A DNA stretch of 64,000 nucleotides from Rotaria socialis (lineage: Eukaryota). Shown one piece after another: positions 1 to 48,930 of this stretch (the stretch's first letter is position 1; each line of letters begins with the position of its first letter). The stretch covers positions 1 to 64,000 of the forward strand of contig CAJNYD010000049.1 in NCBI GenBank assembly GCA_905331295.1, read 5' to 3'. The position numbers and the translations under genes were made by a program. The notes beneath the pieces are model-generated. The model did no database searches. It saw only the letters and a list, made by a program, of their open reading frames with translations, and was not told the DNA's origin.

Positions 1-100
1 ATTTACAACTATATCTTTTAGATATAGTATAGTAAACTGTCTTGAATTGATTTTGTTCCAAATTTGATGCTTGAATCTAAATCGACTTAAAGATATTAAG

Positions 101-144
101 CCACCTGATGAGACTATTTAAACAATGGTCGAAACGCGTCGTGG
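101..144 (+). ncRNA. Minimal type I hammerhead ribozyme (Penelope/retrozyme type)
   Basis: CCAC-CTGATGA-GACTATT(taaac)AATGGTC-GAAA-CGCG-TC-GTGG: stem I CCAC/GTGG, intact core, 7-bp stem II, palindromic ACGCGT stem III; predicted cleavage after GUC at 140. Confidence 0.9.
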
Positions 145-319
145 AAGCTTCCTTCACACCCACACCCGTTTGTTTAGAACTGCGATGTCTATTATCTTTG
201 GATAGTAGTGATCTTTAATCATTTTTGTTGAAAATTTATTGGAAGTCAATTTGCTTTGATTTTTATAAATTTTTACTTAAGGATGATTTGATCGATATGC
301 AGTTAATTAGATTCTGAAA

Positions 320-364
320 TTACCTGATGATGACTGTCTAAGCAACAATCGAAACGCGTCGTAA
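320..364 (+). ncRNA. Second minimal hammerhead ribozyme, tandem with the first
   Basis: TTAC-CTGATGA-t-GACTGT..ACAATC-GAAA-CGCG-TC-GTAA; stem I TTAC/GTAA, stem II with one mismatch; cleavage site 220 nt from the first. Confidence 0.85.
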
Positions 365-1047
365 GTAGCTTTGAATCTAAAAAATTCCAGTCTAAACACA
401 CCCACACCCTCACGAATTTGAAAATAGCAATGATCAACTATGACTATGATTCAGAAAGGGGTAATATCTTACCGCCAATTGTAGTTTTCGCGAATTGGCG
501 AATGTCGTGAGGAAGTTCGCCAACGACAAATATACAATTGGCGAACTTACATAGACTCATATCAGACCAAATCATCATGTTTTTTTCTGCTACTATTTGT
601 TTTTGTTTTTCTTGCTTCATCTGTTTTCCATATCATTAGTACTCCTATATTTTTGTTTTGCTACACATTCTATGTGTTGCTTGGTTTATTGATTCATCCA
701 TATTATATTCTGAAAAAAAACGATCATCATAATGTAGTACCCGAGAATTTTTGCCGAATTTATTATATTCAATATCCATCTGGAATTCATTTATATCGAT
801 AGACCTTTCTTCTACAATAGGAAGAACAGTATCAACCATTATTCCATCTTTAGTATTTTCCGAAGTTGGTGTAGTCATATACAAAAGAGTTTTGTAATCA
901 AAATCGCCTCTAATCATGCATCTATACTTTCTTTATTCTAGATTTAAATCCAGTCGTTGACTGAATGAGAATTAAATGACTCAAAGCAACGACAGATGGA
1001 ACATTGTTCATGAAAGTGATCTGTCACAGCATGGTTAAAATGATAGA

Positions 1048-1656
1048 ATGGAAGTGATATCAGCAACACAGATACATGGTGAAGAATCAACAGATATTGT
1101 CAATAAAAAGCCTAAATATCATGGAAATAAGAAATTACAACGCTTCAAACGAAAATGGAGAACACGTGGTTTGAATGAAGAAGAAATTGCGACATTGATT
1201 AATACAAGAACCCATGATACATCTGAACAATCATTAAACGAGCCAATGATGAACGATGAAATTGAAGCGTTCAACAAACGAAAAAGAAGCTCATCCAAAC
1301 AAAAACTATCAAACAAATCTTTAATATCAATGAGCCAGTCATCTATATCACAAGGAGTTTTAAAAAAAGTGAAGAATTCTCAAATTGAAACGAAATCATC
1401 TATTGATAATAATAGCGATCGCTTGAATGCAAATGATGATATTTCTTTTTATAAGCCATCACGATACTTGAAGATGCCACGAAAGTTTCTTTTGCATTCA
1501 TTACGCCTTCAATTAAATTGCTCTATAAAAAGAAAAAAAGAACAGCGATTTACACTATCACGACTTAAACTATTTGACAAACAATTTTGTCTTTATCAAA
1601 TTCATCATTTATATCAAAAGTATTTGGATTTCGGTCTACAGTATCAAATCTGGCCA
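1048..1656 (+). pseudogene. Basic repeat-associated ORF, probably accessory ORF of a Penelope/Athena/Terminon-like element; truncated
   Basis: K/R-rich ORF (HGNKKLQRFKRKWR..., YLKMPRKFLLHSL) in the same orientation downstream of tandem hammerheads; in-frame TAA at 1036-1038 upstream; probable donor after IWP (1657) and acceptor about 1711, after which a CCGG-rich repeat interrupts. Confidence 0.45.
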
Positions 1657-1718
1657 GTCAGTTCAATCTGCTTTGTCTCAATTCATAAAATAGTATTAAT
1701 TTCATTTACAGGCACAAC

Positions 1719-2040
1719 TCGATGATTCCGACCTCCGGAACCCGGAGGAAACGGTAAGAAACGTCTTGTTTTCCGGTGTATTCCGGCCGGTTCCGGAGCC
1801 TTTCCGACAGGATCCGACCGGAAGTCGCATCGGAATATGTAAGCAGTATTCCGGCCGGATTTCACCGTACCCGGAACCGGTTCAAACCGAGTCGTATCCT
1901 TTACCGGAAACAACAAAGATCCGTTGGGGTTCCGACAGAACCTTAGCGGAAGAACAACGGAACCGTACTTATCCCAGCGGCAAGATCAGCGGAAACGCTA
2001 AAAGCTTGCGGGAACATACTTCGGATCCAGTGGATATGAA
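1719..2040. mobile_element. CCGG(A)-rich non-autonomous element remnant
   Basis: Abrupt GC-rich block full of CCGGA/TCCGG motifs, similar in character to the element at 32261-32483; termini not resolved. Confidence 0.4.
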
Positions 2041-2061
2041 AGTGAGACCCACGCAGTCTCA

Positions 2062-2340
2062 GTGAGACTATCCAATACTCACTTTTCAGCAAGTGAGACT
2101 ATCCAATACTCACCTCTCAGCAAATGAGACTATCCAATACTCACCTCTCAATAGGTGAGACTACCTAATACTCACTTTTCAGCAAGTGAGACGTCCTAAT
2201 CCTCACCTCTCAGTAGGTGAGACTATCCAATACTCACTTTTCAGCAAATGAGACTATCCAATACTCACCTCTCAGTAGGTGAGACTATCCAATACTCACT
2301 TTTCAACAAGTGAGACTTCCTAATACTTACCTCTCAGTAG
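2062..2340 (+). repeat. Tandem array of nine 31-bp units
   Basis: Units start at 2062, 2093, 2124, 2155, 2186, 2217, 2248, 2279, 2310; consensus GTGAGACTATCCAATACTCAC(T/C)T(T/C)TCAG(C/T)A(A/G); internal GTGAG/CTCAC inverted repeat. Confidence 0.95.
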
Positions 2341-2355
2341 GTGAGAGTAACGGTC

Positions 2356-2454
2356 GGGTGTGGGTGGTGTGGGTGTGGGTGTGTGGGTGTGGGTGTGGGT
2401 GTGAAATTATTTGAATTACACCCACACCGGTACCCACACCCACACCCACCCACA
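2356..2454. repeat. Head-to-head interstitial telomere-type repeats (TGTGGG)n ... (CCCACA)n
   Basis: About 8 GGGTGT-like units, a short AT spacer (AAATTATTTGAATT), then CACACCC units; TGTGGG is the telomeric repeat known from Adineta vaga. Confidence 0.85.
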
Positions 2455-2662
2455 AGTTGAACGTAGTTAAGCACCAAAATCGATTGATCGTGTTGATAAT
2501 GCATCTCCTCCTCGTGATCGATATGATCGTATTCATTTTAAAGATGATGGACATGGAAAACATGCATTATATAACAATGGAACATGGAAACATGGTGGAC
2601 GAGCCTTAACAAGAGAGGAAAAAAAGTGGATTACAGAAAATGGATGGCCATTACCAAACTAA
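2453..2662 (+). pseudogene. Orphan C-terminal fragment resembling a bacterial RHS/polymorphic toxin tip domain
   Basis: Manual translation QVERS*APKSIDRVDNASPPRDRYDRIHFKDDGHGKHALYNNGTWKHGGRALTREEKKWITENGWPLPN*; no start codon, internal TAA at 2468-2470; absent from the ORF track. Confidence 0.65.
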
Positions 2663-3531
2663 CAAATACAAATTGAAATTTATTTTTCTCTTTAAAAAAA
2701 GATGGATCAAAAATTTTATTCTGTGTTTTTATCAAGTTAAGTTCTTTCATTATATATTTAAGAAATATTTATCAAATAACACTCACTTTTTACTCGAATT
2801 CTAATTTACATAACTTCTTAATAACGAGACAGTAGCTATATGCATAGAGTTTTTTATTTCACTTCCCTGTATTCAAAAACAATTTTTCTTTTTACATATA
2901 GATCAAACTATTCAGTCAAATTTCGTTCATGGATACATATATCTTTATGTTTCATTTGTTGCAATCGGTTCACGCTATATCCGACATATCTAAACGTTTA
3001 TAAACGCTTTTTACTCTGTCTCTTGGAAATTAGAATTTTCGTATTTATCCGTAAACAAAGGGAAAAAAGTTTTTACCATTGACCCAATCATTGAGTGACA
3101 AAATTAGAAACGGTTTTTAATATTCATACACTAAATATTTTTCAATTTCTTTTAATTTTGGAGTTGCAATTATTAACAATTAAAAAGCAAAGACAACAAG
3201 AAAAACAGAAATATCCGCTGTATGTGGATTGATACGAATATTGCTGTTTCCACTCGTCTTATGAGAACTAACTTTTTCTTTGTGAAAATTGCTGAAAAAT
3301 ACGTATAACATATCACGGTATGACTTTTGCTGTATATTATGCTTCGCAAGCATACTAGAACGACGAAAGTGTTTCTAGTGTAGTTTCACATCAAGGAATG
3401 AGGGTGTGGGTGTTATAATCCTTTTGACACATCCTAGTCACACTCACACCCACACCCCAAAACAATCACCATTGTATTTTATTCAAATTTCAGTAACAAT
3501 GTTGTCATGATAAAAATATGTAATTCACCTA

Positions 3532-5740
3532 TTAGTGACAACAATATCGTACACAGTTAAGAAGAAAAAACCCAAAATCATGAAATACAAGACAGTTGAT
3601 TCTCGTATCTTTCATCCATTCGAACGAGCGATATATCCAAGTACGTCGGTGACATCGACTACAGGTAAAATCTTTCCTTTTATTCCATTTTTGCTGAATC
3701 CGAACATCGGCTGTCTGCAAGCCTCCAAGTGCATCAACTTTATTATACCACAATGTCGAATTTTCGAAGTCGTGCATGCATTCGTAGATTTGTCCCATCA
3801 TCGAATAAATGTTAATGAATTCCATTTGTTCGGTTGGAATAGCCTTCTGTGCAATTTCCAATGCTTTCTCGGTATGACCTAGTGCCCTTTGCAACTCTCG
3901 ATGTCGAAGTTCAAGCAACAGCGTTGCTAAACTTAGATTATAAAATATCAGATCCGGATGTATTTCTGGTAATGAATGATTGGCCACATTTAAAGCTCTC
4001 TCACAATACTCGAGCGATGTTCTATAGTACTTTCTACGCCGAAAAAAAGCAGCCATATTTCCATAGCACGTTGCAATTCTCGGATGATTTTCACCGAAAT
4101 TTTTCCTATAGATTGTCAAAGCCGTATTGTATGAGTCAAGAGCTTGTCTTCGCTTATGTTGCATGCTATATAGATTTCCTCGAACCAGATGAATATTAGC
4201 CTGAAGGGGATGATCCATATATCCGTGACTTTCGCACTGTTCCAGTGCTCGATCATACCATACAGCACTTTCTTCATATCGACCTGTATGTAATGCTGCA
4301 TTGCCAATATTCTGACAGTATTGTGCGCGGTTTGGATCATCTGTAGAAGTTTCATAATAGATTCGGCGAAAAAATCGATCTGCAGTGTGGAATTTATTCA
4401 TGTTGAATAATACGACGCCAAATGAGTTCAAACTTGCTTCTTTATCTTTTCCCGTTAGTTCACCGCCGTATTCATTGCGTAGTGTCTCAAAAAGCGGTTT
4501 CAATTTATTCTCTTCATTGCTGCAAAGCTCCATTTTTACTGTTGAGAAAGAATCTCCATTAATTACATCCGTAATATGAAACATACTTCCAGCCATAAAG
4601 AGTACTTCTTCTTCTTGTGGAAATTGACTGAATCTTGATATATTAGCAAAGGGTTGTACACCGCCAAGAACCTTCGAATCAGCGTTTATGTCAAATAAAA
4701 CGCTCACTTCGTCATCATTCTTATTGTTGTTTATGAGAATCTCGGCAACGCTTAGTTGAAGACTAGTTGATAGAAAAGAATTCATTGAGATATACTGATC
4801 TTTTGCTTTGGACAACTACTTCCATTCTTCTCTTGAAAGACGTTGTCCGCGATAAACATGCACTGGTAATTGTTCTTGATGAAGCATGAGCTGGTTTTTC
4901 ATATCTTGTAAAATAAACCGATAGAGAAATAGCAGATCTATATTTTGAGTGCGGAGAGCTTTATTAAGTTGACGATAGACAAATGCATCTTTGGTATACC
5001 ACTCAAAGACTTTTTCTGCATTGTATTCTAGATGAAACTTCGTCACTTTTTCTAATTCTTTTGCATTAGTGGCAAAAAGTTCGGTACATCGAGCAATCAA
5101 TTCATCCTTATCATTGAGCTTTTGGTCCATTCGAAGGAGAATATCGAGAAGTAATTGAGTGAAAAGGAATCGTCCGTTGATTTCGTTTGAAGAAAGTTCT
5201 GATGTCTTATTTCCTTCGAAAATATTGATAGAAAAGAATTCTTTAGTGTTGCGTAGGAAACGAGCTTCAAATAAACGAATGCGATTGGCTACTTGGTCTA
5301 GATTGGTATGTTTAACCTACGAAAACGATCCATATAATTATATTTTCGATCATCAAAATATAGCTTACTTTCACATATGCAGGAGATATGTGATTTTCAT
5401 CATCGGTACTCATTGCTACGAGGTGGACAACGAAGATTACTTTGATGGGACAGAGGCAATGTGTAACATTAATGATCTCTTCTGTATCTTGCCCTTCAGC
5501 AATAAGTATTACTTCAGCACTCGTGGGCAATTTGTAAAGATAATCACCACACTCCAAGAAATCTTCGAAAAAACGCATATTGTATCCGTCTAAATTCAGA
5601 ATTTGTTCGGAATACTGTGGATCTTGGAGTAAAGTTAAATGTGGCCTCTCATTGAGCCATACAATATCGAAATGCTCGATGGTAGCATGCTCTTCAATTT
5701 CCTCCTGAGCAACAGGCACATGATATTCCGAGCCTTTCAT
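3532..5740 (-). pseudogene. ADP-ribosyltransferase (R-S-E clade) + TPR repeat gene with in-frame nonsense codon
   Basis: Exons about 5740-5369 and 5316-3532 (52-bp GT-AG intron); motifs WYTKDAFVYRQLNKALR, VYRGQ, FLSTS, QEEEVLF, then TPRs; single TAG at 4816-4818 between the R and STS motifs, with the frame continuing. Confidence 0.85.
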
Positions 5741-6852
5741 ATGAGAAAGAAAGCATTTAATATTATGTTAACAGCCTAGATAGAAAAACCTACTTTTGTT
5801 TCCCATTACATACAAAATCTAATCTCATTGCTAGCCATAATATTCTTTTTTTACCTACTCTCATGTGCTGTTACTTATTCAGAATACAATTTCTGTTTAA
5901 CGTCAATTATATAGCAGCTGAAAGCAGGTGAGTTTTTTTTCTTTTCTTCCGTTAATACTGTTGGAAGTTTCCAAGTACAAAAGACACTGACTCACACATA
6001 CGGAATAAGCTGCAACAGTTGGCTCAAAAAGGGTAGGGATGTAGATTGTGGATGCCAGTGGGAGTGAAGGGCGACAGAAACAGCACATCCACATCTCAGA
6101 TTTTGCTGATTTCGAAGACCTATGTTAAGATAATGACAGCAATTATTTATCTACATTTTATGTGTCAATGAGTGATTCGAGTCTTTTCAGAGAACACTGG
6201 TGTAATGTGATATTTATTAAACAAAAAAAAACGGTTCTGATAGAACTAAGAAAAAATTATGATTGTAACAATAACCCAATCAGAATAAAATCTTAATAGA
6301 TTGTGATTTTCTATTTATCCACGAGATATCAATCGTGTCTCGCTAAGTTGAAAAAACACCAATAATTTATTCGCAATAAGTACGTAAGATAAAAGCTTTC
6401 TATAGCGAATTAATTTTTGTTCTCTAGAAGAAATTGATACAAAAAGAATCGAAACGCTCAATCATGAGTTCGCTTGCGCTAGGTGTCAGGTTTACTAAAT
6501 TGCAAAAACGCATCCATCTTTTTTTTCACTAAATTCTTGATGAAAAATGCAAGTTACAACGGATTATTGAATAATCAGAAACAAACAATGTTATTTATGA
6601 TCTTGAGAGTGTGGGGTGTGAGTGAGTGAAGAGGATAACCATTTGTCCATACTTGCACTGACACACTCACACCGATAGCCTCAAATAAATAAATTTATAT
6701 CTTAATCTCGTGCTGATTAACATTTTTGTTAAATGCAGTTAGGGAGCAAGTGTTCGGGGAGCATCTTGCCGGGATTCATAGCAATCAGTTGAGCGAAATA
6801 AAGTCTTATGCAATTTTTATTTATTTCATTGAAAATTAATAATTATTAAAAC

Positions 6853-14815: not shown

Positions 14816-17800
14816 ATGAGCGAATCGAAATTATATTTTATCAGTATCATTTTATATTTATATATTTTATTGACTGTTGCCGATAATAATGAAAGTAATA
14901 ATAATGTTGCCGCTGCTAAACCGTATGCGCGAGGTAATGTATTCATAAAAATATCGTTCGATTGATTAACATCTAATCTGTGATCGTCTATCAAAAAACG
15001 ATTATTTTCGAAAAGTTAATTATTATTCTTTAAATCGATTAGAATAATTTTTCAGTGTTTCCGTTCTGTTGAAGAAGTTAAATTTCGATAATTCGCTGTT
15101 AGATATTGACAACGCACAGTAATCTATTATATCTCACAAAAAAACGTTTTTTTTTTCCCACAAGCACCCGAGTTAAAAGAGCTTAGTGCCGAGTAGATTA
15201 TTGAAAGAATGACACTCCAGTATGAATTCTACTATTATTCTCAATCGAAAGATAACCTTGACAGAGAAGACTACAACATCTTTAGAAAATTTCCCATACA
15301 AATCAATTACATATATTTCTATTGTAGTATGTGGCGACATTCATGTAACAGTATTCGAATTAAAAACTGGTTTTAAGAACAATCAGTTGCTGTTATGTGA
15401 AATAAGTCTTGGTTCTGTTACATATGCTCCAATGAATTCCGTAAAGAATGCAAGCACAGCAACGTCAATATCTTTTCCACATCTTCGTGAAATCTATGGT
15501 TATGTGTTACTAGGTTATTCATCCGTGGATTCATTTTCATCCATGTTTCCGAATTTATCCGTTATACATGGACGAGATTTACATCAGGGTTATTCATTAA
15601 TTGTCACGAACAATTTTCTATTAAATGAATTAGGTTTAAAGTCATTAATGAGCATACGCCGAGGAAATGTAATTATAGCTCGAAATGCTCAATTGTGTTA
15701 TGGAAAATCTTTACGTTGGAATGATTTATTAGAAACAAAAAAGAATCATATTATATTACGACAAAATCGCGATAATTGTGCTTTCTGTCCGACATGTCCA
15801 TCAGCATGTTGGTCGCCAACACAATGTCAAAAAATATGTTCAGCAAATTGTCAAGGAAATTGCGTATCAGCAAAAGTCTGTTGTCACGAACAATGTGTTG
15901 GAGGATGTTATTATCATAATCGAACTATGTCATCGACTTTAATTTGTAATGCTTGCAGAAACATGAGAATCTATTCTACGGGGATATGCGTACAAAAATG
16001 TCCAACAAATATGTTGAAAGTAAAGTTTACTTTTGATGTTTTGTTAACTTTCATAGTTTGTGCTTTTTCCTTCATATTCTTAAGAAATTTTTTTTTTATT
16101 TCAAAGACTCGCAATTCGTTATGTGTAACTCCTGCAGAATGTAAGTCGTTGGTTTCGGGCACTGCTTTCATTTTAGAAGGGACAAATGAATGCGTTTTAT
16201 CTTGTCCGTCTGGTTTTGTTCGAGAGCCAGATTCACGTTGTGTTCGTTGCATATCATCGGCAGATAATAGTTATTGCAATGGTACATGTCGCGATAAACA
16301 TATTCAATCAATAGAAGACTTTAAATTATTAAAATATTGTTCACGCGTATATACATTAAGTATTTATAATATACAAACAGTCGAATCAAAAGGAACTAGT
16401 TTCCAAGAAGCATTTGCTGCATTTGAATCACTAGAGCAAATTGATCATGAATTTACAATACGTAATGTTAAAATATTTTCAACATTAAAAATCTTTTCTC
16501 GACTTCGCCGTATTGGCACAGCATCAAATTCTTCGATGACAATTGAGGAAAACGAATTTCTAACTGAACTATGGCCATCCACACAACCGCGGCCAACTAT
16601 TCAAGGGAATTTAAATATTGTTCGTAATGCTCGTTTATGTATAGAACATATTACAGATTTTATTAATTATACAACTAAACATGAACGAGGTTTTAATGAT
16701 TATTGTTATTGATATTCTATTGAACAAACTCAATTTTTATTTAGATCTTCAACCAACACCCGACACATTGAATCAATATGCTAATGGATATTTAACATCG
16801 TGCGAATCAAATTTTTTAGAAATAACAATTAGTAATATAAGTTCATTAACAGCACGAGTTAATATTGCTATAGCAAAAGATTTATTTCTTCACTCAAGTG
16901 GTAAAGCCAAAAATTTACGTCGGTCATTTTTCTCAGTTTTTTACAAACCAACACGAACGAAAAATGAAACATATTTCGATGCAACACATTCATTGAATTG
17001 GTTAAGAAAGGTTGAAATGGTCAATTATAATCGTCCACCAAATAGTAAATATGCATTCGAATTTATCTTCATTCAAGATTAACGAGTCCAATAGATAGAT
17101 AATTCACTCACACCCTTGTTCGTATTAGCGCTTGAATTCATATAATCCGCTTTTTGATTTAACTGGGGAAACTTGATAGAAGATCATTTCCAAAGGAAAT
17201 TGAAACTACGATTAAATCTACAAGGTGCAGAGTGTATAAAGGATATTCGAGAAAATACATAAACGGATAGGGATCACAATAGTTTTCTACCTGTCGTTCC
17301 CGAGCGAAACACTAAACCGGATGAACTTCTTGAATTTTTATTGATATAATATTGTCTAGAGGAAGAATAGAGAGAGAGAGAGTATACTAGACAATGTGCG
17401 CGAAATTATTAATCTTCTTTTAGGTGAATCGTTTAAAATGAGCACACAATTAGAGTCACTTGTTGGCTATCAATGGTATGCAGTTTATGTATCAATAACA
17501 TCAAATCTTGATACAATCGGTTCATTTTCTTCTATTACTTATTTTCAAACATTACAACGTCAACCGGAACCAGTGCTTAATTTGCATGGTAAATCATTAT
17601 CTCGATCAACAATTGAGTTAGTATGGCAAACGCCATCGAAACCTAATGGTCCAACAACAAATTATCTCGTCTATTATGCACCCATAGAAGATCGTTTACC
17701 AGTCGATAATTCAAAATTATTGTGTTTAATGAAAGGTAAATTGAAAGTATAAAAGAATTTATTTCGCTAAATAAACGATACATAATTTGTTTTCTTAGAT

Positions 17801-19843
17801 CGTTGGCGATCGGAAGTAAATGTTCAAGTTAATAATTTAAATCTTACGCAGTCAGTACAATGTTCACAATCTAAAACTGAAGTAAATAATGTGATCACAA
17901 ATAATTATGATTATGATGATGAAGAAAGTACAAATATTGACCACGTTGCAACGGATTTATCTATAATTGAATATAAACTTATTAATTCTGTCACTCGACG
18001 AAACGATCCCCTAACGCTTAGTAAAGAAGTTAAAGCTGACATCATCAATAATTTAGATATTTTTTTTGAAAATAACACTACTGATTTTAATGATAACTAT
18101 CAGATAGACGTTCAAGAGTCATCCGTTGTTGAACACAGACCATATATTGATCAATACAATCGATCTACATCCGACACAAGAATTATTATTGACGCTTTAA
18201 AAGAAGCACAACTGTATCTATTTCAAGTATATGCATGTCATAATATATCGAAACAAGCTTTATCGAATTCTTGTAGTCTTAATGGAATTATATTAGCGGT
18301 TAGAACAAAACCCGGTGATGGTATGTTTTAATGAACCGTAGAGAAGCTATTTTTCGCTCTAGTGAACCCTGAAAGCTGAAAAACGGTTTTGGTTTTTCTA
18401 GAGATCCTATATTTTGTAGCTCGTGCAGATGCTGATCAAAATTGAATTTTCGGAGTCGAAACAATTCGAATTCACAGGGCTTCAGTAGATTATCTTCATA
18501 TCCTTCGCAAAGGATATTTCGGTTGGACTTAACGTGATAATTCTCTTGTGGTTGTTCGCTGTTACCGATTAGAATTCTGTATTAAAAGTTATTCTTTTCT
18601 AATGCATCCTGTTTTCAATTCATTTTTTTTCTAGCTTCGCGTGATTTAGTACGGAATGTTCAACTTACCTCTTCAGCAGATGATTCTGATCGTTTAACAG
18701 CTGGTGAAAGACTATTTCTGTATCGAATATCATGGTTGGAACCACTAGACCCAAATGGACTTGTTTATTATTATATGATATATATTGCACAAAATAGTAA
18801 TAATGAATCAGTACAAGAATATTGTGTCGGTTATGATAAATATTCAATAAGTGTAATACTTTTACCGAGTACAACGTATCGTTTAAGAATCATAACATAT
18901 ACAATAGCTAGATTGAATAACGAATATGACGATAGAGAACGGATCAATGGCGAACCCAGTCCATCTAATTCAACAAATTTTATTTTTGAATTGACTTTTA
19001 CAACAAAAGGTTTATCAAGTAAGATTGAAAGAAAGAGAAATCTGTAGTATAAGATTATAAACGTGTAGATTTAGTTAAATGAAATAAATAGACGATGTTT
19101 TATATTCGATTCTCATAATGAGGAAAAGAATTCTATAAATGCTATATGAAAATAAACCAAATTGAGACTATAAACCATCACGTACGGCTGTGGGTATTTC
19201 TCATCTCTCAACTCATGCCTAACTCTTGGATTCGTCTAGGGCCTTTTCAGCGTCTTCCATGGCCAAATCCAAACTAGGATAGGGTATCTAGTAACTGCAA
19301 CAGATCGTCATTCATTCAATAGCATAACATATAATAGATCTCCTTGATAGCGCCACGAAACGACTATTTCAATACAGTGCTTATCGATATCGCAGCTAAA
19401 TGTACGCAAACGAACTCCCCTAAAACAGAAAACGCTTTGTTTATCATTGATCAACAATTTGCTTTAAAAAATGGATGTATTGTTGCTTCTATTGAAGTAA
19501 CAATCTATGACTTTTCTGGGTCAGTTTCTCAGTTTGACCGAAAGAATATGTAAGATAAAAAGACTTTATTTTCGTTCAATTTTTATTAAAAAAATTCTAT
19601 TCATCATACCTATAAATTTTAGGTAATCAATTATTTCGACAAAATCGTTTACCAATATTTATATTAATAATTTTGTTAACTATAATTTTACTAATCGTTA
19701 TAGTTATTGCACTAATTTATTATTATAAATCTCGTCGAAGGACTAAAACATCAAGACCAGCATTTCGTTGCTTGTTAACGACTGTATACGACGACGTAAA
19801 CGACCGTACGCGATCGTACTCATTGCAACATACGATGGTATAA
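14816..19843 (+). CDS. Insulin/IGF-receptor-like ectodomain protein with TM helix and short tail, no kinase domain
   Basis: Predicted exons 14816-14933 (signal peptide), 15328-16019, 16107-16689, 16745-17044, 17424-17735, 17799-18320, 18635-19018, 19623-19843; L domain (FPHLREIYGYVL, FPNLSVIHG), furin-like Cys-rich region (CCHEQCVGGC), second L domain, FnIII (WQTPSKPNG, EPLDPNGLVYYY), TM; AATAAA about 19920. Confidence 0.85.
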
Positions 19844-20154: not shown

Positions 20155-23100
20155 CTAGCATGCACCATTGATCAAATTGTTAGTGTGTATTTCCAGTTCT
20201 CGATTCATGTTGTGAACTTTGTTGCAACGGTGCTCGATATAATTAACATGTAGTTTAAGTTCTCGATACACCGTCTCAGCTTGGCGACAGTGTTCAGCAA
20301 AATTATTCGTCAACGTTTCTAACTCTCGACTCTTCTTTTCCATCTTGTTCCAGCGGTGCTGAAACTCGTTAACATCCACTTGAATCTCACGGGTCTTGGT
20401 GTCCATATGGTTGCATCGTTGCTCGAAATCGCTGATATGCGCACCAAGCTGTGTCCTCATGGTTTCTGTCTGATGACAGCATTTCTCAACGTTGTGATTC
20501 TGTGTTTCAAGTTCTCGATACTTCTTCTCAACTTTGTTACAACTCAATTGTAGATCGTTAATCTGCGTTTCAAGCTCTTGATTCTTCGATTCCACTTGGC
20601 TGAGATTTTGCTCCAGATCACTGATGTGAGTAACATGCTGTCCATTTATCGTTTCAACTTGAATAAAGCGTGTCTCAATTTTTTCATTTTGTATTTCTAA
20701 CTCTCGATTTTTTGTGACTATATGGTTACAGGATTGCTCCAGTTCGTTAATATGAGCGTCCAGCTGCCGTTCCGTGGTTTCAGCTTGATGACACCGTTGC
20801 TCAAAATTGTTACACTGCGTTTCGAGCGTTCGATTCTTTTTCTCCACTTTGCTACAGCGTTGCTGAAGGCTACTAACATCCGTTTCAATCTCTCGATTCT
20901 TCATATCCGTTTGGTTGTAGCGTTGTTGAACATCGTTAATCTGCGCTGCTAGCTGTTGATTTATGGTCTCTACTTGATGACAACGTTGCTCAAAATCGTT
21001 ATTTTGCGTTTCGAGCATTCGTGTCTTCGTGTCCAGATGACTGCAACGTTGTTCAAAATCGTTGATGTGTACTCCCAATTGCCTATTCGTTGTCTCCACT
21101 TGATGGCAGCGTTGATCGAAGTTGTTGTTGAGAACTTCTAATTCTCGACTCTTGCTGTCCACTTTGTTGAAGCATTCCCGAAGATCTCCGATGTGTATCT
21201 CAAGCTCTCGATCCTTCGTGTTCATTTGGTTGCACCTTTCCTCAAATTCGTTAATATCTACTCGAAGCTCTCTATTCATGATTTCCACCTGATGACAACG
21301 TTGCTCCAGGCCGTTATATTGTGTTTCTAACTCTCGATTCTTCTTGTCTACTTTATCCCAGCGTTGCTCAAAGTCATTAAAGTGTACTCTGAACTCTTGA
21401 CAAGTGGTCTGAATTAGATGGGAATGTCGCTCAAAGTTTTTATTCTGTCCTTGAAGGTCTTGATTCATGGTTTCTACTAGATGACAGCGTTGCTCGAATT
21501 TCCCATTTAGCACTTCTAGTTCTAAATATTTCTCCTCGATTTTCTTGCAGCATTGTTGAAGATCATTAATCTGTACACCAAGCTGTTGATTCACGGTATC
21601 CACCTCATGATGACGTTGCTCAAAGCTACGATTCTGATTTTCAAGCTCTTGATTTTTCATGTTAGCGTGTTTCTGACTTAGCTCAATGTCGTTAACACGC
21701 ACACCAAACTGTCGATTCATTGTCTCCAGTTCATGACAACGTTGTTCTAAGTTCTTATTCTGTGTTTCAAGCTTTTGATTTATGATCTCCACTAGATGAC
21801 AACGTTGCTCAAAGTTCTTATTCTTTGCTTCTAGTTCTCGATTGTTTTTGTCCATTTCATTGGAATGTTGCTGTAGATCGCTAATCTGTGTTTCAAACTG
21901 TCGATTCTTGATACCAGCATGGCTGTGAGTTTGCTCAAGATCATTGACTCGTGCTACAAGCTGGCGATTGGTATTCTCCATTTGATGACATCGTTGGTCA
22001 AGACTTTGATTCTGTGTTTCCAACTTTTGATTCGTGATTTCGACTAGGTGACATCGTTGGTCAAAGTTACTATTCTTCGTTTCAATTTCTCGATTAGTCG
22101 TAGTCATTTGCTGAGATCGTTGTTGAAGATTGTTGATCTCCATTTCAAGTTCTTTATTTTTTATATGGAGTTCATTGTAGTGCTGCTGAAAATCATTCAT
22201 CTGCAGTGCAAACTGTCGATTCGTAGTTTCAATTTGATGAAAACGTTGTTCAAAGTTTTGACTTTGCACTTCTAGTTCGCGATTCCCATTATCCACTTTG
22301 TTGCAGTTTTGATGAACCTCGTTTATCTGTGTTTCCAGGTCACGGTTTTTTGTGTCAGTTTGGTTACAACGTTGTTCTAAACTGGTAATCTGTGTTCCGA
22401 ATTGTTGATGGATGATCTCCGTCTGGCGACAGCGCTTGTCAAATTCATGGTTCTGCGTTTCCAACTGCCGATTGGCGTTGTCCACTTTATGATAGCCCTG
22501 TTGAAGCTCATTAATGTGCACTTCCAGCTGTCGATTATTGGTCTCTAATTGATGGCAACGTTGTTCAAATTTGTTATTCTGCGTTTCGAGTTCTCGATTT
22601 TTATTGTCCACTAGGTTGCATCGTTGCAAAAGATGATTAACTTGTATTTCAAGCTCACGAGTCTTGGTCATCGTTCGATGACAAAATTGCTCAAAATTAT
22701 TTTTCTGTCCTTCTAGATCTTGATTGGTTTTGTCCATTTTGTTGTACCGTTGAAGGAGGTCGTTGAGTTGCATTTCAAGTTCTCGACTCTTTGTGTCTAT
22801 TTGAGTGTTATGTTGCTCCAAATTGTTATTCTGATTTTTAAGATCTCGAGTTATGATATCGAGTTGGTTGCAGCGTTGATCAAAGTCATTAACCTGTGTT
22901 TCGAGTTTTTCATTCGCTGCGTTGGCATCATGACCATGTTGCTGAAGGTTCTGAAGCTGTATTTCTACTTCTGTATACTTCTTGTCCAGATAGTTACTGT
23001 GTTTTTCAAACTCGTTCAAGAGTTCAATGTCATGGTGTTTGAGACTTTTCAGCTGCTGCGCAAGGTGCTGAACGTCTTTTGTCAGATGTTTATAGTTTTT

Positions 23101-23535
23101 CTCGAGAATAATGTATTGACCAAGAGTTACTCTTTCGTGTTCGTAGGGAAAACTCTCTGCTCTCCTAGTATATATATATTTTGATGATGTCGGTCTGTGC
23201 ACGAATTCTTGCATTTCATATGGTGATCCTATGCGTGGATAAAGGTATTCGGGCAATGCGTCTGAATAACTGGTTTGTTTTTTCGTTTTTTCTTGAATGG
23301 AGTACTCTACTGGGTTTCGATCATACTTATTTCTAGAATAATGTCCATCGATTCTCGGTTCATCAGCGTGCTTTGGTACATCACGGCAGAGGGAACAAGA
23401 GCGATGGTGTCTTGATTTGGCTTCAGTAGAGTAAGGATCAAATGAGTAATCAAGTGATGAAGATCGGTGATGATGAATGGAAGTATCATTACATATTTTA
23501 CACATAAAATGCGTGCTGGTCGGCTGCTTATCCAT
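20155..23535 (-). CDS. Long coiled-coil protein built of about 40 degenerate 21-aa repeats
   Basis: 1126-aa uninterrupted ORF; repeat type FEQRCHQVETxNRQLxxxINd. Confidence 0.85.
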   Translation of the reverse strand: MDKQPTSTHFMCKICNDTSIHHHRSSSLDYSFDPYSTEAKSRHHRSCSLCRDVPKHADEPRIDGHYSRNKYDRNPVEYSIQEKTKKQTSYSDALPEYLYPRIGSPYEMQEFVHRPTSSKYIYTRRAESFPYEHERVTLGQYIILEKNYKHLTKDVQHLAQQLKSLKHHDIELLNEFEKHSNYLDKKYTEVEIQLQNLQQHGHDANAANEKLETQVNDFDQRCNQLDIITRDLKNQNNNLEQHNTQIDTKSRELEMQLNDLLQRYNKMDKTNQDLEGQKNNFEQFCHRTMTKTRELEIQVNHLLQRCNLVDNKNRELETQNNKFEQRCHQLETNNRQLEVHINELQQGYHKVDNANRQLETQNHEFDKRCRQTEIIHQQFGTQITSLEQRCNQTDTKNRDLETQINEVHQNCNKVDNGNRELEVQSQNFEQRFHQIETTNRQFALQMNDFQQHYNELHIKNKELEMEINNLQQRSQQMTTTNREIETKNSNFDQRCHLVEITNQKLETQNQSLDQRCHQMENTNRQLVARVNDLEQTHSHAGIKNRQFETQISDLQQHSNEMDKNNRELEAKNKNFEQRCHLVEIINQKLETQNKNLEQRCHELETMNRQFGVRVNDIELSQKHANMKNQELENQNRSFEQRHHEVDTVNQQLGVQINDLQQCCKKIEEKYLELEVLNGKFEQRCHLVETMNQDLQGQNKNFERHSHLIQTTCQEFRVHFNDFEQRWDKVDKKNRELETQYNGLEQRCHQVEIMNRELRVDINEFEERCNQMNTKDRELEIHIGDLRECFNKVDSKSRELEVLNNNFDQRCHQVETTNRQLGVHINDFEQRCSHLDTKTRMLETQNNDFEQRCHQVETINQQLAAQINDVQQRYNQTDMKNREIETDVSSLQQRCSKVEKKNRTLETQCNNFEQRCHQAETTERQLDAHINELEQSCNHIVTKNRELEIQNEKIETRFIQVETINGQHVTHISDLEQNLSQVESKNQELETQINDLQLSCNKVEKKYRELETQNHNVEKCCHQTETMRTQLGAHISDFEQRCNHMDTKTREIQVDVNEFQHRWNKMEKKSRELETLTNNFAEHCRQAETVYRELKLHVNYIEHRCNKVHNMNRELEIHTNNLINGAC

Positions 23536-25372
23536 GTAGACAAGATAACGTGTTCACTTGTTTTAGCGCTTTACACCTACAACTAAGAATAGTAACATCA
23601 TTCTATGCAATGAATTGAAAAGAATGTGGTTGTGAGGGTGTGAATGCGAGTGTGGAGAAGAACTATATCCACACCCACACCCACACCCAGGTTCTAGTTT
23701 GGTATTGACTACAGACATTATCAGTTACTTGTTTAATGGAAGCAGAGATAAACCAAAAAAGGACGTCCTCTAACCCTTATTTCGACTTGACCTACAGAAA
23801 TTATCACAAATATATGCTACTATTGATACATGACATATGGCTATACTACAACTATTTTCATTACAATACGAATATTAACACCAGGTACGGCTTTTTTATT
23901 TCCTTATTTTTAGCTCTTGGTTGGTTTTGGATTTTCCTACCTCTATAAATCATTTTGGAAAAATATGGCTACCACAAAATTTTGCCTCAGTCATGTACTG
24001 CTCCTCGTGATTGAAAACATATCTAAACCATATGGTTTTTCTGAGTTTTGGCAATTTTTTCGAAATGATTTCCTTTATTAGCTAAACATCTACTAATTAA
24101 CAGAAAGAAAAATCATAGAACACCATGTAGTTCGAGTTCGTTGCATATCAATAGGGAAAGGAGGAAATGATAGATTTTTCAGAGTAAGCTTTAATGTACA
24201 AACTATTCTTATCAAAATACTATAATGTATTACTTAAAATATTCTGCATAAACTTTGTTTTGGGTTTCGAACAAATATTTGCGCGCATGAAATTGTCCCT
24301 TGCCTTCTATAAATAGATGAAAACTGAACACATAGGTTGACTTCTATCTCTATGTTTTATTTGCTGTCTCATTCTTTGAAGTTCTACTAGTACAAATTTA
24401 TCATAATAAATTCAAATGGCTGAAGTAAAGTGATAATTAAACTCTTTGTGATATAATAATGTCTTATCTGTCTATTTGTTAGATTTTCCAGAAAGCCACA
24501 TTTTATCTCTCTAAATGCCTTGTTTCCGAATCAATTGTTTTGATTCACTCCCATAGAAATTCAAATATAAGATGGAATCGATGACTAAATATTAGGTATC
24601 TGGTTACTAAAAAAAACACATTATTCCAAGACAAGTTATTTCTAGGTTTTACAGTAGTTTAGAATGAAAATACGCCACAAAAGAGCAGTATGACTCAAAA
24701 TTATTACACCAGAGTATAATTCACAAAATAAAAAGATAAGTTTATTTACAGATACCGTTTCAAACGACCAAGCCTATTTTCCACTATGCACTGATTGAAT
24801 ATGGCAACTGGTTGCTGTTGATTTCTTATTGACTTTGTTGTGAGTAGAAATCGCTTTCAAATAATGGAGAGAATGAATAATAGTGAGAAATAGAAACATA
24901 TATGAGATGTGTCTTTATAAGATGTTTTATTTCTGCAGTTCTCTCGATCTATGCTCTTTACTATTGTGGTTTTGTTGTTCAAACGGTCGGTGTCTTTCTT
25001 TTCAGATTTTTCTCATGTGGAGAAAAAAGAAAAACAACCATGTTTTTCGTTGATTTTGTTTTCCAGTTACTTCGACGAGTGTCTACACAATATGCATAAA
25101 CAAGTATCAAATCCTTTTAGCGAAGAAATATGTTTTGAAGAGAAACCAATACTCATGAATTACATCAATTTGATTTCTATCAAATAGTTTCTGCGGTTTC
25201 TCTCTGTTAGTCATGAATCTCAGTATTGATTGTGAATCTATAGAAACCTTTTCTTTCTTTCTACACCTCCTAGAGAAATCATTCAGTGAGCGAAACTGAT
25301 CGCACCTTGGTGGATTATCAGGGTGTGAGTGTGAGCGTGCTATCACTTTTGTCATTGGCAACTCACACCAAC

Positions 25373-34062: not shown

Positions 34063-35013
34063 TATGGGTGTGGGTGTGGATATAATTTCTATTTTCGCCC
34101 ACACCCACACCATAGGCGGATGTCTTATTGGCAAAATTCCCAAATCCCTTGCCATCGCCTCGACCAATTTACTCATACATCGATGTCCCTCAAAGATTCA
34201 TTCTAACGATTCATCGAGAGCTCGCGTAGTCTCGAAGCTACTTTTAACCTCCTGAAATCTTTCGAGATGTTCCAAGTTCTAGTAAAACTCCATGAGATCT
34301 CATACAATATACTGAAAATCTCAGAAGTCTTTTGTAGTTTTCGAAACTCTGTGGAACATTTGAAATCTTTAACGCTGAAATGTCTTAAAATCTGGAAGCG
34401 CACTATTCTTTACTCTCATTTAGGTTACATATTTTTGCAGGATTTCCTCAGAAACTGGATTAGAACTCAGGAAGGTAGATACAGAGTATATGGGGATGCT
34501 CCATGAGTCTCTTCCCTACACCTACACTCTCAATATCTTCCATATGTTCTATACAACATATATTTCACATACCTACTGTATAGATATACACAGAGTCTGA
34601 ACATCTCAGGTTTTATCTTTTCCAGCATCGGTGCATTTTGTTGGTGTGTTTTAATTCCGTAGTTTTTCTTTGAATTTTTGGAGTAACTGTAGAAGACATC
34701 ATATCCTCGTTTAGGTCGAGTGATAGAATATATTGAAAACTCCGGCAATGATTCTATCACTAAGCCGTGTATTTACTGTCAGGTTTTGTACACTCACCTT
34801 CGTTTAAATTCTTTCCAACTGACTACGTTTCTTGTTGAATAGTAAAATAGAATTTTACTCGCTGTTTGTAAACGTAGAAAATAATGGCAGATTGTTTACT
34901 TCTTTCTTTGAAAAGTAATGAGAATTTTGTTTTTCAAAGAACTGCTCGATAAAAATTCAAACAGGAAAGAAATCTACTAATGGCCTTCGTGAGGATGTGT
35001 GTTTTGAAGCAGA

Positions 35014-37563: not shown

Positions 37564-37974
37564 GTGTAGAGGTTGACAAGACGATGATCCATACGTACAA
37601 TGAGGCTGACACCCACACCCACACCCACCACTGATGTAGGTGTGGGCATGCAGAATAAATTAGGATTAATAGCCACACCCTCAGATGAATGTTTAGTGTT
37701 TGACTATATAATTTGAGTTATAATAGACCGACTGTGTTGCGTTTGTGAGTGACTCTACAATATATTATTTCTTCAAGACTGATTGAAATACTTAGATATG
37801 TTTTGTCATGCATTTAGTATTCAAGAAGCATTAAGCAAAAACTGGAAAAAAATAAAGGAACTAGTTTTGTCATCCATTAACGAAACATTTCCACTTAATT
37901 TTACTTTGTATTATGCTCGATATAGTACATTTATGACAGTTACTAATGAGCATACATATAAAGCTCGTCAAAAC

Positions 37975-45166: not shown

Positions 45167-46778
45167 TTTAATTCGAGTTACAATCTAACTGAAGAAGATT
45201 GGTAGTGATGAAATCGTTTAAACTAAAAGGAAAAATAGTTACAATTTAAATATTTACACAAAGAGAATTATCTGAGTGATGCACGTGTCTTCTCTTAGTT
45301 TTGTTTTCCCCGAAAATCGATATCTCTGTCGTGCAAAAGTGACATTTGAGTAGCTGTTTTCATTTGCATAGAAAGAATTCAATAAGAAACTGGAGACTGA
45401 TGCGCATTGTTGACTGACAGCAATTTGTATGTGGGTACTATTGTGGGTTATTCATGAGAACAGCCACGTCCACATTCTCAAAATTAAGTACATGAATTTC
45501 TCTCCCTCGTATTTTCTTTCAATCTTTGATGTGGAATATTCTTTTTCTTCTCTTTTAACTTTTTATATTTTACTGCTTTTTGTAACTACTTTTTTTATCG
45601 TGTTTTTTCAATTATTTAAAATAATGAATTTGAAAGCAAACAAATGTTTTTCATTCATTTTTTTGCATCCTTTCAATTCATTTAATGGGTTCTTCATTGC
45701 CAATATGATATAAAACGAAGAAAAATTTCTATTTTTCATTTACTTCCGAGCAGAAAAAGAGAATGAAGAAATGATTCACGAGACATTCGAGATCGAATCG
45801 CTCAGCATATCGATGACATACAGATTGCCAAGTCGATCGAAGGACAAGCCGATGGATTAGTTGAGCTAATTTGCTCTTTGCTCCTTGACCATTTCCACCT
45901 GCAATTACAGTAATTGGTTGATTGTCCCCTTCTGCAACATAGCATGTACTCTTCGTATCGACGAATAGTCCTCAAGAATACGACAACTGTTTCAGAGCAT
46001 TCTCGAAGCTGTGACTTCCAGCGATGACTATACCTTCTTTTGCACCTTTATTCTATTTCATTATACGATGATTGCTGTTGTCTGACACGTAGATATTTTT
46101 TTGTCGATCCACAAAGAGATTAATCGGAAATTCGAGTTGATTGAGACCATCACCTTGTTCATTACCACTATCCATAATGGCTTCATTATTGTCTCCTAGT
46201 CGATATTCTCTTACTTCATGCTTTTTTTTATGTCAGCGACGTAGAGATATCTCTGGTCATCAATTACTAGTCCACAACATATGGTATTATTAACAAAAAG
46301 ACTATAAGGTACATAGAGTTGATAGGTATAATCACCTAACCCGTGACCTCCACGAACAGTAAAGCCATTCTGTGCTCATTTGGCAGTAGCAGGAATAATG
46401 AAAAGCACTACAAAAACCAGAAAAAGGAAAATTCATCATCATTGTTGTCTGTTCGATTTCTTGAAATTTCTGTTATTACCTTTCTCCCTCTCGTGTCAAA
46501 GTTCAATTTCGAGCATACAATATTTCATACAAAGAATCGTCTCAAACGTTTCCAATTATGCCCATGAGTACTTGGGGTGTGGGTTTCTATTATTTTCCAT
46601 TTCACCCACACCCTCAAGATTAAATTGCTACACTAAAGATTAAATAATTACAGGAAACTTTATATAGCTATGCATTACATAAAAGATGTCGACTGAAATC
46701 TCACAAGAACGAACAGTATCTCTTTTGAGAATGAACCGTTGCAGTCATTGCATGCTTTTTAATGTCTACTTGGGTATG

Positions 46779-48930
46779 TTACTGATGAGTTTGTCTGTGT
46801 AAGGTACGTGGATCGAGGGAAGCGATGCACTTGAAGGGACGAAATAGTCTTTCAAATAGTTCCGGCAGTGACTCAGACAAATTCATATTTTCGCGAGCGT
46901 TTTCAGCACTTTGGATAATATTTTTGATATGCAAAAGATGAGGATTTTCCACAGGCCACATATGAAGGCAAATGCTAAGCGCTTTTTTATATAAAGGTAG
47001 TGCTGTCCATAAATCGGCTTTCTCTTCAATGCTGCCTTTATTTACTAATACAATAGCGATCTCTATATGTTCTGATGGTAGCGATTTCTTGTAGACTTCA
47101 AGCGCGCGCTTATAATAGTCCAATGCCGTGTCATATTCGCCAAGACGTTGATGAACTTCTGCCATATTATTCCAGGATGTACCAAAGCGGAAATGAGTCC
47201 GTGGCAAATGTTTTAATCGAATCTCCCGAGCTTTTTTATGATAATCAAGTGCATCAGGATATATCTTCTGTTCTTTACAGACGACACCGATGTTAGTATA
47301 AGTCATGGCGCTCGCCAGATCATCTTCACCAAGCGCTTGTTGAAAGATAGCTAACGCCTCGTGGTACAATTGTAGTGCCTGGTCAAAGTTACACCTATTG
47401 TAATGCACACGCGCGATAGCGGTGAGTGTATCAGCAATACTCGGATCTGATGATTTTAATGTTTGCCTTCGAATGTTTAACGATTTATTAAGAAGATCGA
47501 CGGCACGTTCATCGTCACCGTTTTCTGTGGCTACTAAACCAAGCAAGTAATAACAGTAAGGCTTCCACACATGATCATCAGACGGCAGTAATTCCAGACA
47601 ACGATTATAATAAGTTTTTGAATGTTCGAATTTACCCATATTGTGCAGTGAATTACCAAATTCGAGAAGATCTAATTCGCATCGACTAGACTCTGTTAAC
47701 AAATAATCAAAGATTGGTTCCAAAATCTCATTATGATTACTGAATAATTTTAGTTCAATCAACCATACTCCGTATTTATCAATCTGAATGCTTTCAATCC
47801 GAAAAATTGATCCCGACATAAATAAAATTTCTCCTTCGTCAGAAAAGTTGCTCAGGAGTGATATATCAGCAAATGGTTTAATACCGCCAATTGATGGATC
47901 GGCATATATTTTAAAGAGTACTTTCTCTAAACCCTCCGTACCACCACCAATGAAGAATTCAGCTATATCAGGATCAAGAGTCGTTGAGAACAATGAATTT
48001 ATTCCAATCAACTTTCCGACTGATTGCTGCAATCTTTCCACTTCATATTTCGACAGAGATTGACCTCGATAAACATATCCTGGAGATGACCATTGATTTT
48101 CTTTGAGTTGCTGTGCAATATCACGAAGAAAAAAACGAAAAACAAAAAGTACATCGATGTTTTGTACACGAAGTGCTTTGTTCAGAATTCGATAAACAAA
48201 CGAGTTTCTTGTATACCACCACACTGATTTATCACTTGAATATTCGTTTTGAAATTCGTGCACAAGTTGCAATTGACTGTCTTGATCTTTGATATCTTTT
48301 TGATTGTGACAAAAGTCAATAAATTCTTTGATTGCCGCTGAAGTCGATTTCATTTTTTGAAGAGTCTCAATCAATAGTTGTGAATGAATGAAATGGCCAT
48401 CTAATTCGGCAGTTGACTTCTCTTGATCATCATCAGTGCCGAATATGTCAAATGAGAACAGATCATCGTCTTCACGACCTGGTCGAATCCTATAACTTGA
48501 TGTCATGAACGTAGCAAGTTGATTCCACTGAGAATATATGCCTCGAAACTAAGAAAGAAGATTCTCTAAATCATTAAAGTTGCTGTATGTGTATAATTAC
48601 TTTTCTAAACTGTCGAAACCATGATTCATTTGGCTGTATCTCAGCGCTACAAATATATATGGCTAACACTTGTCGAAGTTGATCAATTCGAGGTATAATT
48701 TGTTGGCCCAATGGAACATCGTCAATAAAGACAATGCAATCATCATCCGAAAGGGATCGGATGAATTGCTCACATTCAATAATATTTTCAAATAACTTTA
48801 TATGATTGATTGATGACGGAATTTGTTTTAAAGTATCAAGAATGTGTTGATAGTTACTGTGAGAGTCAAATAGTGAAATCTGCCAATGTGTCTTAACATT
48901 ATTGTTATTCGCTGTTGAAGCTGACTGCAT
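46779..48930 (-). CDS. ADP-ribosyltransferase (R-S-E clade) + TPR repeat protein, intact
   Basis: Exons 48930-48601 and 48548-46779 (52-bp intron, in frame); WWYTRNSFVYRILNKALR, VYRGQ, NSLFSTT, DEGEILF; about 6 TPRs of about 42 aa. Confidence 0.9.

Follow-up and report, generated by a model that had tools for sequence, protein, structure and literature searches.

A truncated gene beside a telomere-repeat hairpin

We analysed a stretch of 64,000 nucleotides (nt) of Rotaria socialis DNA (contig CAJNYD010000049.1, positions 1 to 64,000; hereafter the window), focusing on a short gene fragment at positions 2453–2662 of the forward strand. The fragment is a pseudogene, truncated at its 5' end, of a small stand-alone gene whose product is homologous to the C-terminal tip of bacterial polymorphic toxins, as indicated by its translation, its 271 homologues and the lack of an in-frame start codon. 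The frame consists of five codons, a TAA at 2468–2470, 63 open codons and a closing TAA at 2660–2662; an ATG was looked for in this frame and none was found. In place of the 5' end of the gene lies an inverted (TGTGGG)n-spacer-(CCCACA)n hairpin of the telomeric hexamer (2356–2454, −39 kcal/mol), the last three bases of which are common to the tract and the gene. Directly upstream of the hairpin there is a 31-bp tandem array of 9.2 copies (2061–2346). The same pile of upstream repeats contains a palindrome-rich multi-copy repeat with inverted repeats (1728–2048), which has raised depth and variant copies in three sequencing runs. The guanine-cytosine (GC) content of the fragment is 0.37, the same as that of the window. 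The window itself is bdelloid-like, with R. socialis gene models that share the last 39 residues of the fragment and with animal genes as neighbours.

The window copy carries three defects: its 5' end is gone, a stop codon interrupts the conserved domain, and an arginine codon (2528–2530, forward strand) stands at the first histidine of the HxH motif. The arginine was overlooked in the initial annotation of this DNA. In an alignment of 309 tips, 277 have histidine at this position and the window copy is the only one with arginine. At the internal TAA on the forward strand, contigs of runs X1, X5 and X7 show no other letter. Given the lack of a start codon and the normal reading of the other open reading frames (ORFs) of the window, stop read-through and an altered genetic code were both rejected. 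The window copy is a pseudogene.

Single contigs from three of three DNA runs, two of which are possibly the source of the window, cross from 2420 to at least 3431 with 0, 0 and 1 differences, so the junction between hairpin and gene is real DNA. At 80% likeness, one contig per run covers the gene in the three runs. In run X5 this contig has a depth of 36.5, compared with 19.9 and 16.5 for the neighbouring alleles; as this is the sum of two alleles, both homologues likely carry the broken form.

Homology to bacterial toxin tips

A search of 1.84 billion representative proteins with the 63-residue piece that follows the internal stop returned 271 homologues at an expectation value (E) of 1e-3 or less, the best at 1.2e-14. 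Judged by these matches, the homology to bacterial tips is far beyond chance. The piece is 67% identical to an intact Adineta ricciae protein (P0171) and has no match in Pfam, NCBIfam or the sequences of the PDB. Among 150 listed relatives the tip domain lies within 30 amino acids (aa) of the C-terminus in 149, and 79 of these proteins have at least 200 aa; the remaining relative is a chance match to an Ig repeat. In a similarity atlas, the top matches were unnamed bacterial clusters (0.92 and 0.89), while DUF4160, Ntox24 and DUF6367, all below 0.9, were treated as leads only.

These results agree with much of the initial annotation, which had likened the fragment to a pattern of bacterial RHS C-termini. 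We reproduced its translation as quoted, including the internal stop, as well as the terminal stop and the missing 5' part, and the likeness proved to be homology to the tips of RHS and CdiA-like proteins. It had also placed the start of the fragment where a CCCACA tract ends; the position is correct, and the tract is the right arm of the inverted hairpin at about 2356–2454. The claim that the fragment is unrelated to a second toxin-like tip, that of a gene ending at 59741, was confirmed as well, as the best local match between the two spans only 8 aa (E 0.034). No second copy of the 2453 tip was found in the window, which gives a single tip match.

Delivery proteins and partner genes in bacteria

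Delivery domains were detected by a Pfam scan in 19 of 55 chosen homologues (RHS in 14, PT-HINT in three, and DUF637, Fil_haemagg_2 and PT-VENN in one each), and the same tip was found on several different delivery scaffolds in bacteria. A scan of prokaryote genomes with a single tip protein found nothing; an alignment-based scan found 43 loci. Bacterial neighbourhoods were compared at 80 of 98 metagenome loci, at these 43 genome loci from many phyla and at one plasmid locus. Excluding five animal-like loci and four with less than 400 bp downstream, an adjacent and mostly overlapping partner ORF is present at 108 of 115 loci. The partners have about 150–190 aa, overlap the tip or lie directly 3' of it, and form two families of 94 and 14 members. 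Profiles built from 52 of the loci matched a partner at 36 of the 43 genome loci, which lie outside the profile-building set, although a few of them duplicate metagenome loci. One unpublished genome (G044) was excluded from the alignments and supports no claim here. On a plasmid of Candidatus Bandiella woodruffii, a ciliate endosymbiont, a 2051-aa haemagglutinin-repeat protein ends in the tip and overlaps a 176-aa partner (L001:2031-8691).

Two immunity-like partner families therefore occur behind the same tip (L085:2703-3203 and its relatives; L031, L035, L071 and L080). The large family has no match in Pfam or NCBIfam, and its predicted model (pLDDT, the predicted form of the local distance difference test, 94.2) gave no significant fold match; the small family has a weak likeness to DUF4085. 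The layout of tip and partner matches the toxin–immunity arrangement described for polymorphic toxins in PMC3482391. By this layout, the bacterial members appear to be polymorphic toxin tips with presumed toxicity. Like the RHS, CdiA and HINT-released tips of PMC3482391, they end a delivery protein and are followed by a conserved ORF. In contrast to those, no Pfam or NCBIfam model matches the tip or its main partner, the minor partner resembles DUF4085 only weakly, and scaffold and partner are both absent from the bdelloid copies.

Stand-alone genes in bdelloid rotifers

The intact relatives named as bdelloid are stand-alone proteins of 81–123 aa. They include Adineta steineri proteins of 82 and 99 aa, a 99-aa Adineta vaga protein encoded on a 20-Mb record, two A. 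ricciae sequences of 81 aa and Rotaria sordida proteins of 98–123 aa. Accessions of such intact natural copies are CAF1314478.1 (A. ricciae) and UJR06969.1 (A. vaga). Five AT-rich, animal-like metagenome loci also bear short stand-alone tip ORFs. Read by eye, the ORFs beside one of these (L021) are TPR, GPCR-like and PKD-like, i.e., genes of animal type, and neither partner profile matched any of the five loci under E 0.1. Among the named homologues there was no non-bdelloid eukaryote, most homologues bearing no name. A giant scaffold was sought in the bdelloid-named matches of 112–2000 aa and was not found. There are 74 homologues of 203–2000 aa, of which only two are bdelloid-named; in each of these, a tip that has a methionine of its own follows an unrelated domain. 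Since stand-alone copies have this methionine too, the two long proteins are likely joins made by gene prediction.

The bdelloid family is under purifying selection: the ratio of nonsynonymous to synonymous substitution rates (dN/dS) lay between 0.12 and 0.49 in 15 of 15 pairs among six DNA copies, with dS near saturation in many of them. The residues R, D, H, H, K, H and W are kept in all 36 other animal or stand-alone copies that were checked. A second broken animal-like copy was found at L020, with an in-frame stop near the end of the tip ORF. We built a tree from 87 columns for 30 tips that are animal or stand-alone and 47 further tips (45 sampled randomly from the long proteins and two more after duplicate removal). 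It contains two bdelloid groups, and the window copy falls with A. ricciae and R. sordida (80/85). A single bdelloid clade survives the approximately unbiased (AU) test (p 0.08), and by this phylogeny one or two captures by bdelloids are possible. Very probably, bdelloids took only the tip of about 75 aa, in one or two events, without the delivery scaffold or the immunity gene.

In four of five animal-like copies (L003, L020, L021 and L022) a GG(A/T)5-7CC motif lies 89–147 nt upstream of the ATG of the tip gene. It is present in 4 of 76 other tiles of the same loci and in 1.2% of window tiles, and a motif in at least three loci was obtained in 0 of 2000 shuffles, in a post hoc test of a motif spotted beforehand. 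The motif resembles a Rel/kappaB site. Candidate transcription of the tip is seen in one contig of run X9, itself RNA only by guess.

A 5'-complete near-twin and the origin of the junction

Run X9 bears another species label. Its 318-nt contig matches 2452–2669 with one difference (99.5% identity), and from 2452 upstream it contains 100 different nucleotides. The last 30 of these are open in frame and read as the N-terminal motif of the family, with a methionine. As X9 keeps this end, the 5' part of the window copy existed and was then lost. Moreover, a single difference from a copy with two point lesions means that at least one lesion is common to both, so decay preceded truncation. The missing 5' motif was sought across the window at up to three mismatches and was not found, by which we rejected a simple insertion that had displaced the 5' end within the window.

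TGTGGG is the bdelloid telomeric repeat (PMC7943196), and telomeric repeats have been seen at deletion breakpoints in A. vaga (PMC13564844). The junction shares with such healed breaks the TGTGGG sequence at the truncation, the polarity of telomere addition and the 3-nt overlap. It differs from them in that the tract forms an arm of a short hairpin whose kind recurs in the window. Summed contig depth over the hairpin was 1,666–64,462, compared with 7–37 over the gene, so its sequence is highly repeated. Further hexamer hairpins are present in the window at 3402–3457, about 23630–23690, 34066–34115, 46570–46613 and 37610–37645. Most have a TGTGGG arm, an AT-rich spacer and a CCCACA arm, with the arm order reversed at 37610. 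There are 17 exact matches of CACCCACACCC in the window, against 0 expected. The hexamer hairpins look like a dispersed element of very high copy number. As hairpins recur in the window and reach summed depths of thousands, the junction can be explained equally well by a healed break and by a microhomology-guided deletion into a dispersed repeat. On balance we favour a history of gene birth and death in the family, in which this copy had been damaged before it was joined to the telomere-repeat hairpin through a break or deletion at the 3-nt match.

Fold and candidate function of the intact protein

The predicted model of the A. ricciae protein (pLDDT 92.5) is composed of a helix, four short strands and a helix. 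The order of a helix followed by four strands fits the BECR ribonuclease (RNase) scaffold as described in bioRxiv 2026.09.18.752725 (see also 2026.08.28.747851). R-x-D, HxH and KH are invariant in the intact protein, and these residues would suit metal-independent cleavage of RNA. With the BECR-fold RNase toxins (Ntox35, the colicin D/E5 group and BECR-Tox2) the tip shares a predicted small alpha+beta domain with a helix and then four strands, conserved histidines and a KH motif. It differs in that its KH lies late in the domain, whereas that of BECR-Tox2 lies in an N-terminal extension.

Fold searches with the tip model gave no match above noise, BECR structures included. The histidine and KH signature made identity with Ntox35 look apt, and this candidate was rejected as the model gives no match. 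Neither Ntox35 (PF15534) nor Ntox24 (PF15529) matched the 17 aligned members at E of 5 or less, and neither was found at the tip loci of five genomes. The Ntox35 model had no match on the Bandiella plasmid, the DUF4160 model none at the tip loci, and Ntox24 members were above the cut-off in 0 of 301 genomes. In a profile comparison, the tip reached a probability of 2% with DUF4160 (score 15.5, against a maximum of 12.5 in 30 shuffles) and 1% with HicA, below its shuffled maximum. This is a weak test, as DUF4160 and HicA themselves score less than 1% against each other.

Foreign genes are used in bdelloid defence (PMC11258130). Together with the bacterial origin of the tip, the turnover of copies and the kappaB-like motif, such use counts for an antimicrobial action, and an RNase-type antimicrobial role of the intact protein is our tentative suggestion from the predicted structure. 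The scarcity of hydrophobic N-termini weighs against it, as only 4 of the 16 copies checked have one, and there it may stem from extensions of the gene models. The protein might cut the RNA of microbes inside the animal or eaten by it, possibly curbed by inducible expression instead of an immunity protein.

The intact copies could also work outside defence, as a domesticated RNA-binding or RNA-processing protein or as a cell-death effector, an explanation that differs from ours in function only. Most copies have no signal peptide and there is no immunity gene, which speaks for such a role, as does the recruitment of toxin domains for signalling or RNA processing in eukaryotes (PMC3417536, PMC3482391). 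Copy gain, loss and decay, and the upstream motif, are more in keeping with an immune effector than with a housekeeping gene, and we regard a role outside defence as credible and less probable.

Given what is observed (the homology, the layout of tip and partner in bacteria, intact stand-alone copies in bdelloids, the lesions and a 5' end that was lost), we consider it probable, taking all parts together, that 2453–2662 is a broken copy of a stand-alone bdelloid gene, likely a horizontally acquired tip, whose intact copies likely serve as RNase-type antimicrobial effectors. In its most specific form, the explanation would have bdelloids turn a bacterial toxin tip, its family unnamed and its fold unmatched in the PDB, into innate immune RNases of about 80 aa that are inducible through a kappaB-type site and can do without an immunity protein as they act on microbial RNA only, the window copy having died by telomere-seeded healing of a break. 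We find this full version doubtful.

Alternative origins of the fragment

The fragment could be an exonised remnant, its last 39 codons being spliced onto an unrelated upstream gene as the C-terminus. The AG at 2542–2543 and the 39 codons that follow (2542–2662, forward strand) match the C-terminus shared by three R. socialis gene models (P0002–P0004; three sequences, seven contigs), which end in exactly these 39 residues after an unrelated 167-aa domain with no Pfam match, and N-terminal exons could precede window position 1. However, the models are automatic, and in the 39-codon piece the domain's first half, with the HxH strand, is missing. The N-terminal part of the models is not in the window, which would require an intron of more than 2.5 kb, and the X9 contig crosses 2543 unspliced. 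In addition, the two other bdelloid models that join a tip to unrelated neighbours suggest prediction error. The shared C-terminus is likely a predicted splice join, and exonisation seems to us unlikely.

The initial annotation had been reminded of the orphan C-terminal cassettes of polymorphic toxin systems, and had proposed checking which sequence precedes the domain in intact rotifer copies, especially a giant scaffold shared with the gene ending at 59741. Under this proposal, the fragment would be a spare tip of a rotifer polymorphic-toxin system that recombines onto such a scaffold. It draws on two unrelated toxin-like tips within one window, on a fragment without a 5' end, and on the fact that bacteria keep such cassettes (PMC3417536). 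The window tip does resemble the orphan cassettes of rhs and cdi loci in having no 5' part and no start codon. In contrast to these, no immunity gene, array or matching parent gene was found in the window, and the 5' end that is missing belonged to a stand-alone gene. No such scaffold precedes the domain in the intact copies named as bdelloid, which are stand-alone genes of 81–123 aa, and neither of the two bdelloid-named proteins among the 74 homologues of 203–2000 aa has the tip on a giant scaffold. Neither partner profile matched the six-frame translation of the window at E below 0.1, the single tip match is not part of a cassette array, and BLASTN of positions 1–3600 within the window found no match to the 59741 gene. 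The fragment is, moreover, twice damaged. We therefore consider a cassette very improbable; the observation and the bacterial-tip homology of the initial annotation stand, while its orphan-cassette and common-scaffold reading is not supported, for proteins of up to 2000 aa.

Bacterial contamination or an assembly artefact, suggested by bacteria as the nearest non-rotifer relatives and by many stand-alone homologues from short unnamed contigs, is refuted for the window by contigs of three runs that bridge repeat and fragment at single-copy depth, by a GC content equal to that of the window, by animal genes as neighbours and by a relative on the 20-Mb A. vaga record.

Other genes in the window

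The gene that ends at 59741 (59741–64000, reverse strand) is an ORF that encodes 1419 aa or more and runs off the window end; it has a different C-terminal domain that contains histidine, and no match in Pfam or NCBIfam. Two TPR-array genes, similar by eye, lie on the reverse strand at 3532–5767 and 46779–48548. The first extends over several ORFs, a stop lying between 4815 and 4816, and has a weak ADP-ribosyltransferase-like match before the TPRs (E 0.002). An insulin-receptor-like gene (Receptor L, furin-like, fn3) occupies 15213–19047 on the forward strand, and a 1132-aa coiled-coil ORF with regular repeats lies at 20155–23553 on the reverse strand. The forward strand also encodes a membrane protein of the sulphur-transport family PF04143 at 55768–56448 (E 8e-18). 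This family is mostly prokaryotic, and 55768–56448 is possibly a further foreign gene.

Relation to domesticated bacterial genes

Animals have domesticated other genes of bacterial antagonism, such as the dae amidases in ticks and mites and cdtB in insects. As in these cases, a weapon domain of bacteria persists in the host as a gene under purifying selection, and its delivery system is absent. The bdelloid domain differs from them in being unnamed, about 75 aa long and mostly without a signal peptide, with a putative role in defence. As a domesticated foreign gene, the bdelloid tip family can be placed beside the horizontally acquired defence genes of bdelloids (PMC11258130). In the part of PMC3482391 used here, a rotifer is mentioned only for Het-C. 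We found no description of the tip family or of its presence in bdelloids in the literature covered, which leaves aside subscription papers and the supplements of PMC3482391 and of the two preprints, where the family may have another name. The kind of event, domestication of bacterial toxin domains by animals, is known, and this member of it appears to be new.

The locus itself is ordinary, being a dead copy of a gene, and it no longer lends support to a cassette-swapping toxin system in the window. The weight lies with the family. It points to an unnamed pair of tip and partner across many bacterial phyla, and to the capture of the tip by bdelloids as a minimal stand-alone gene that is retained in both genera, Adineta and Rotaria. 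Should the intact protein harm bacteria and spare its host without an immunity gene, it would be a small case, easy to test, of an animal that has borrowed a weapon from bacteria, and would also bear on why foreign genes persist in bdelloids.
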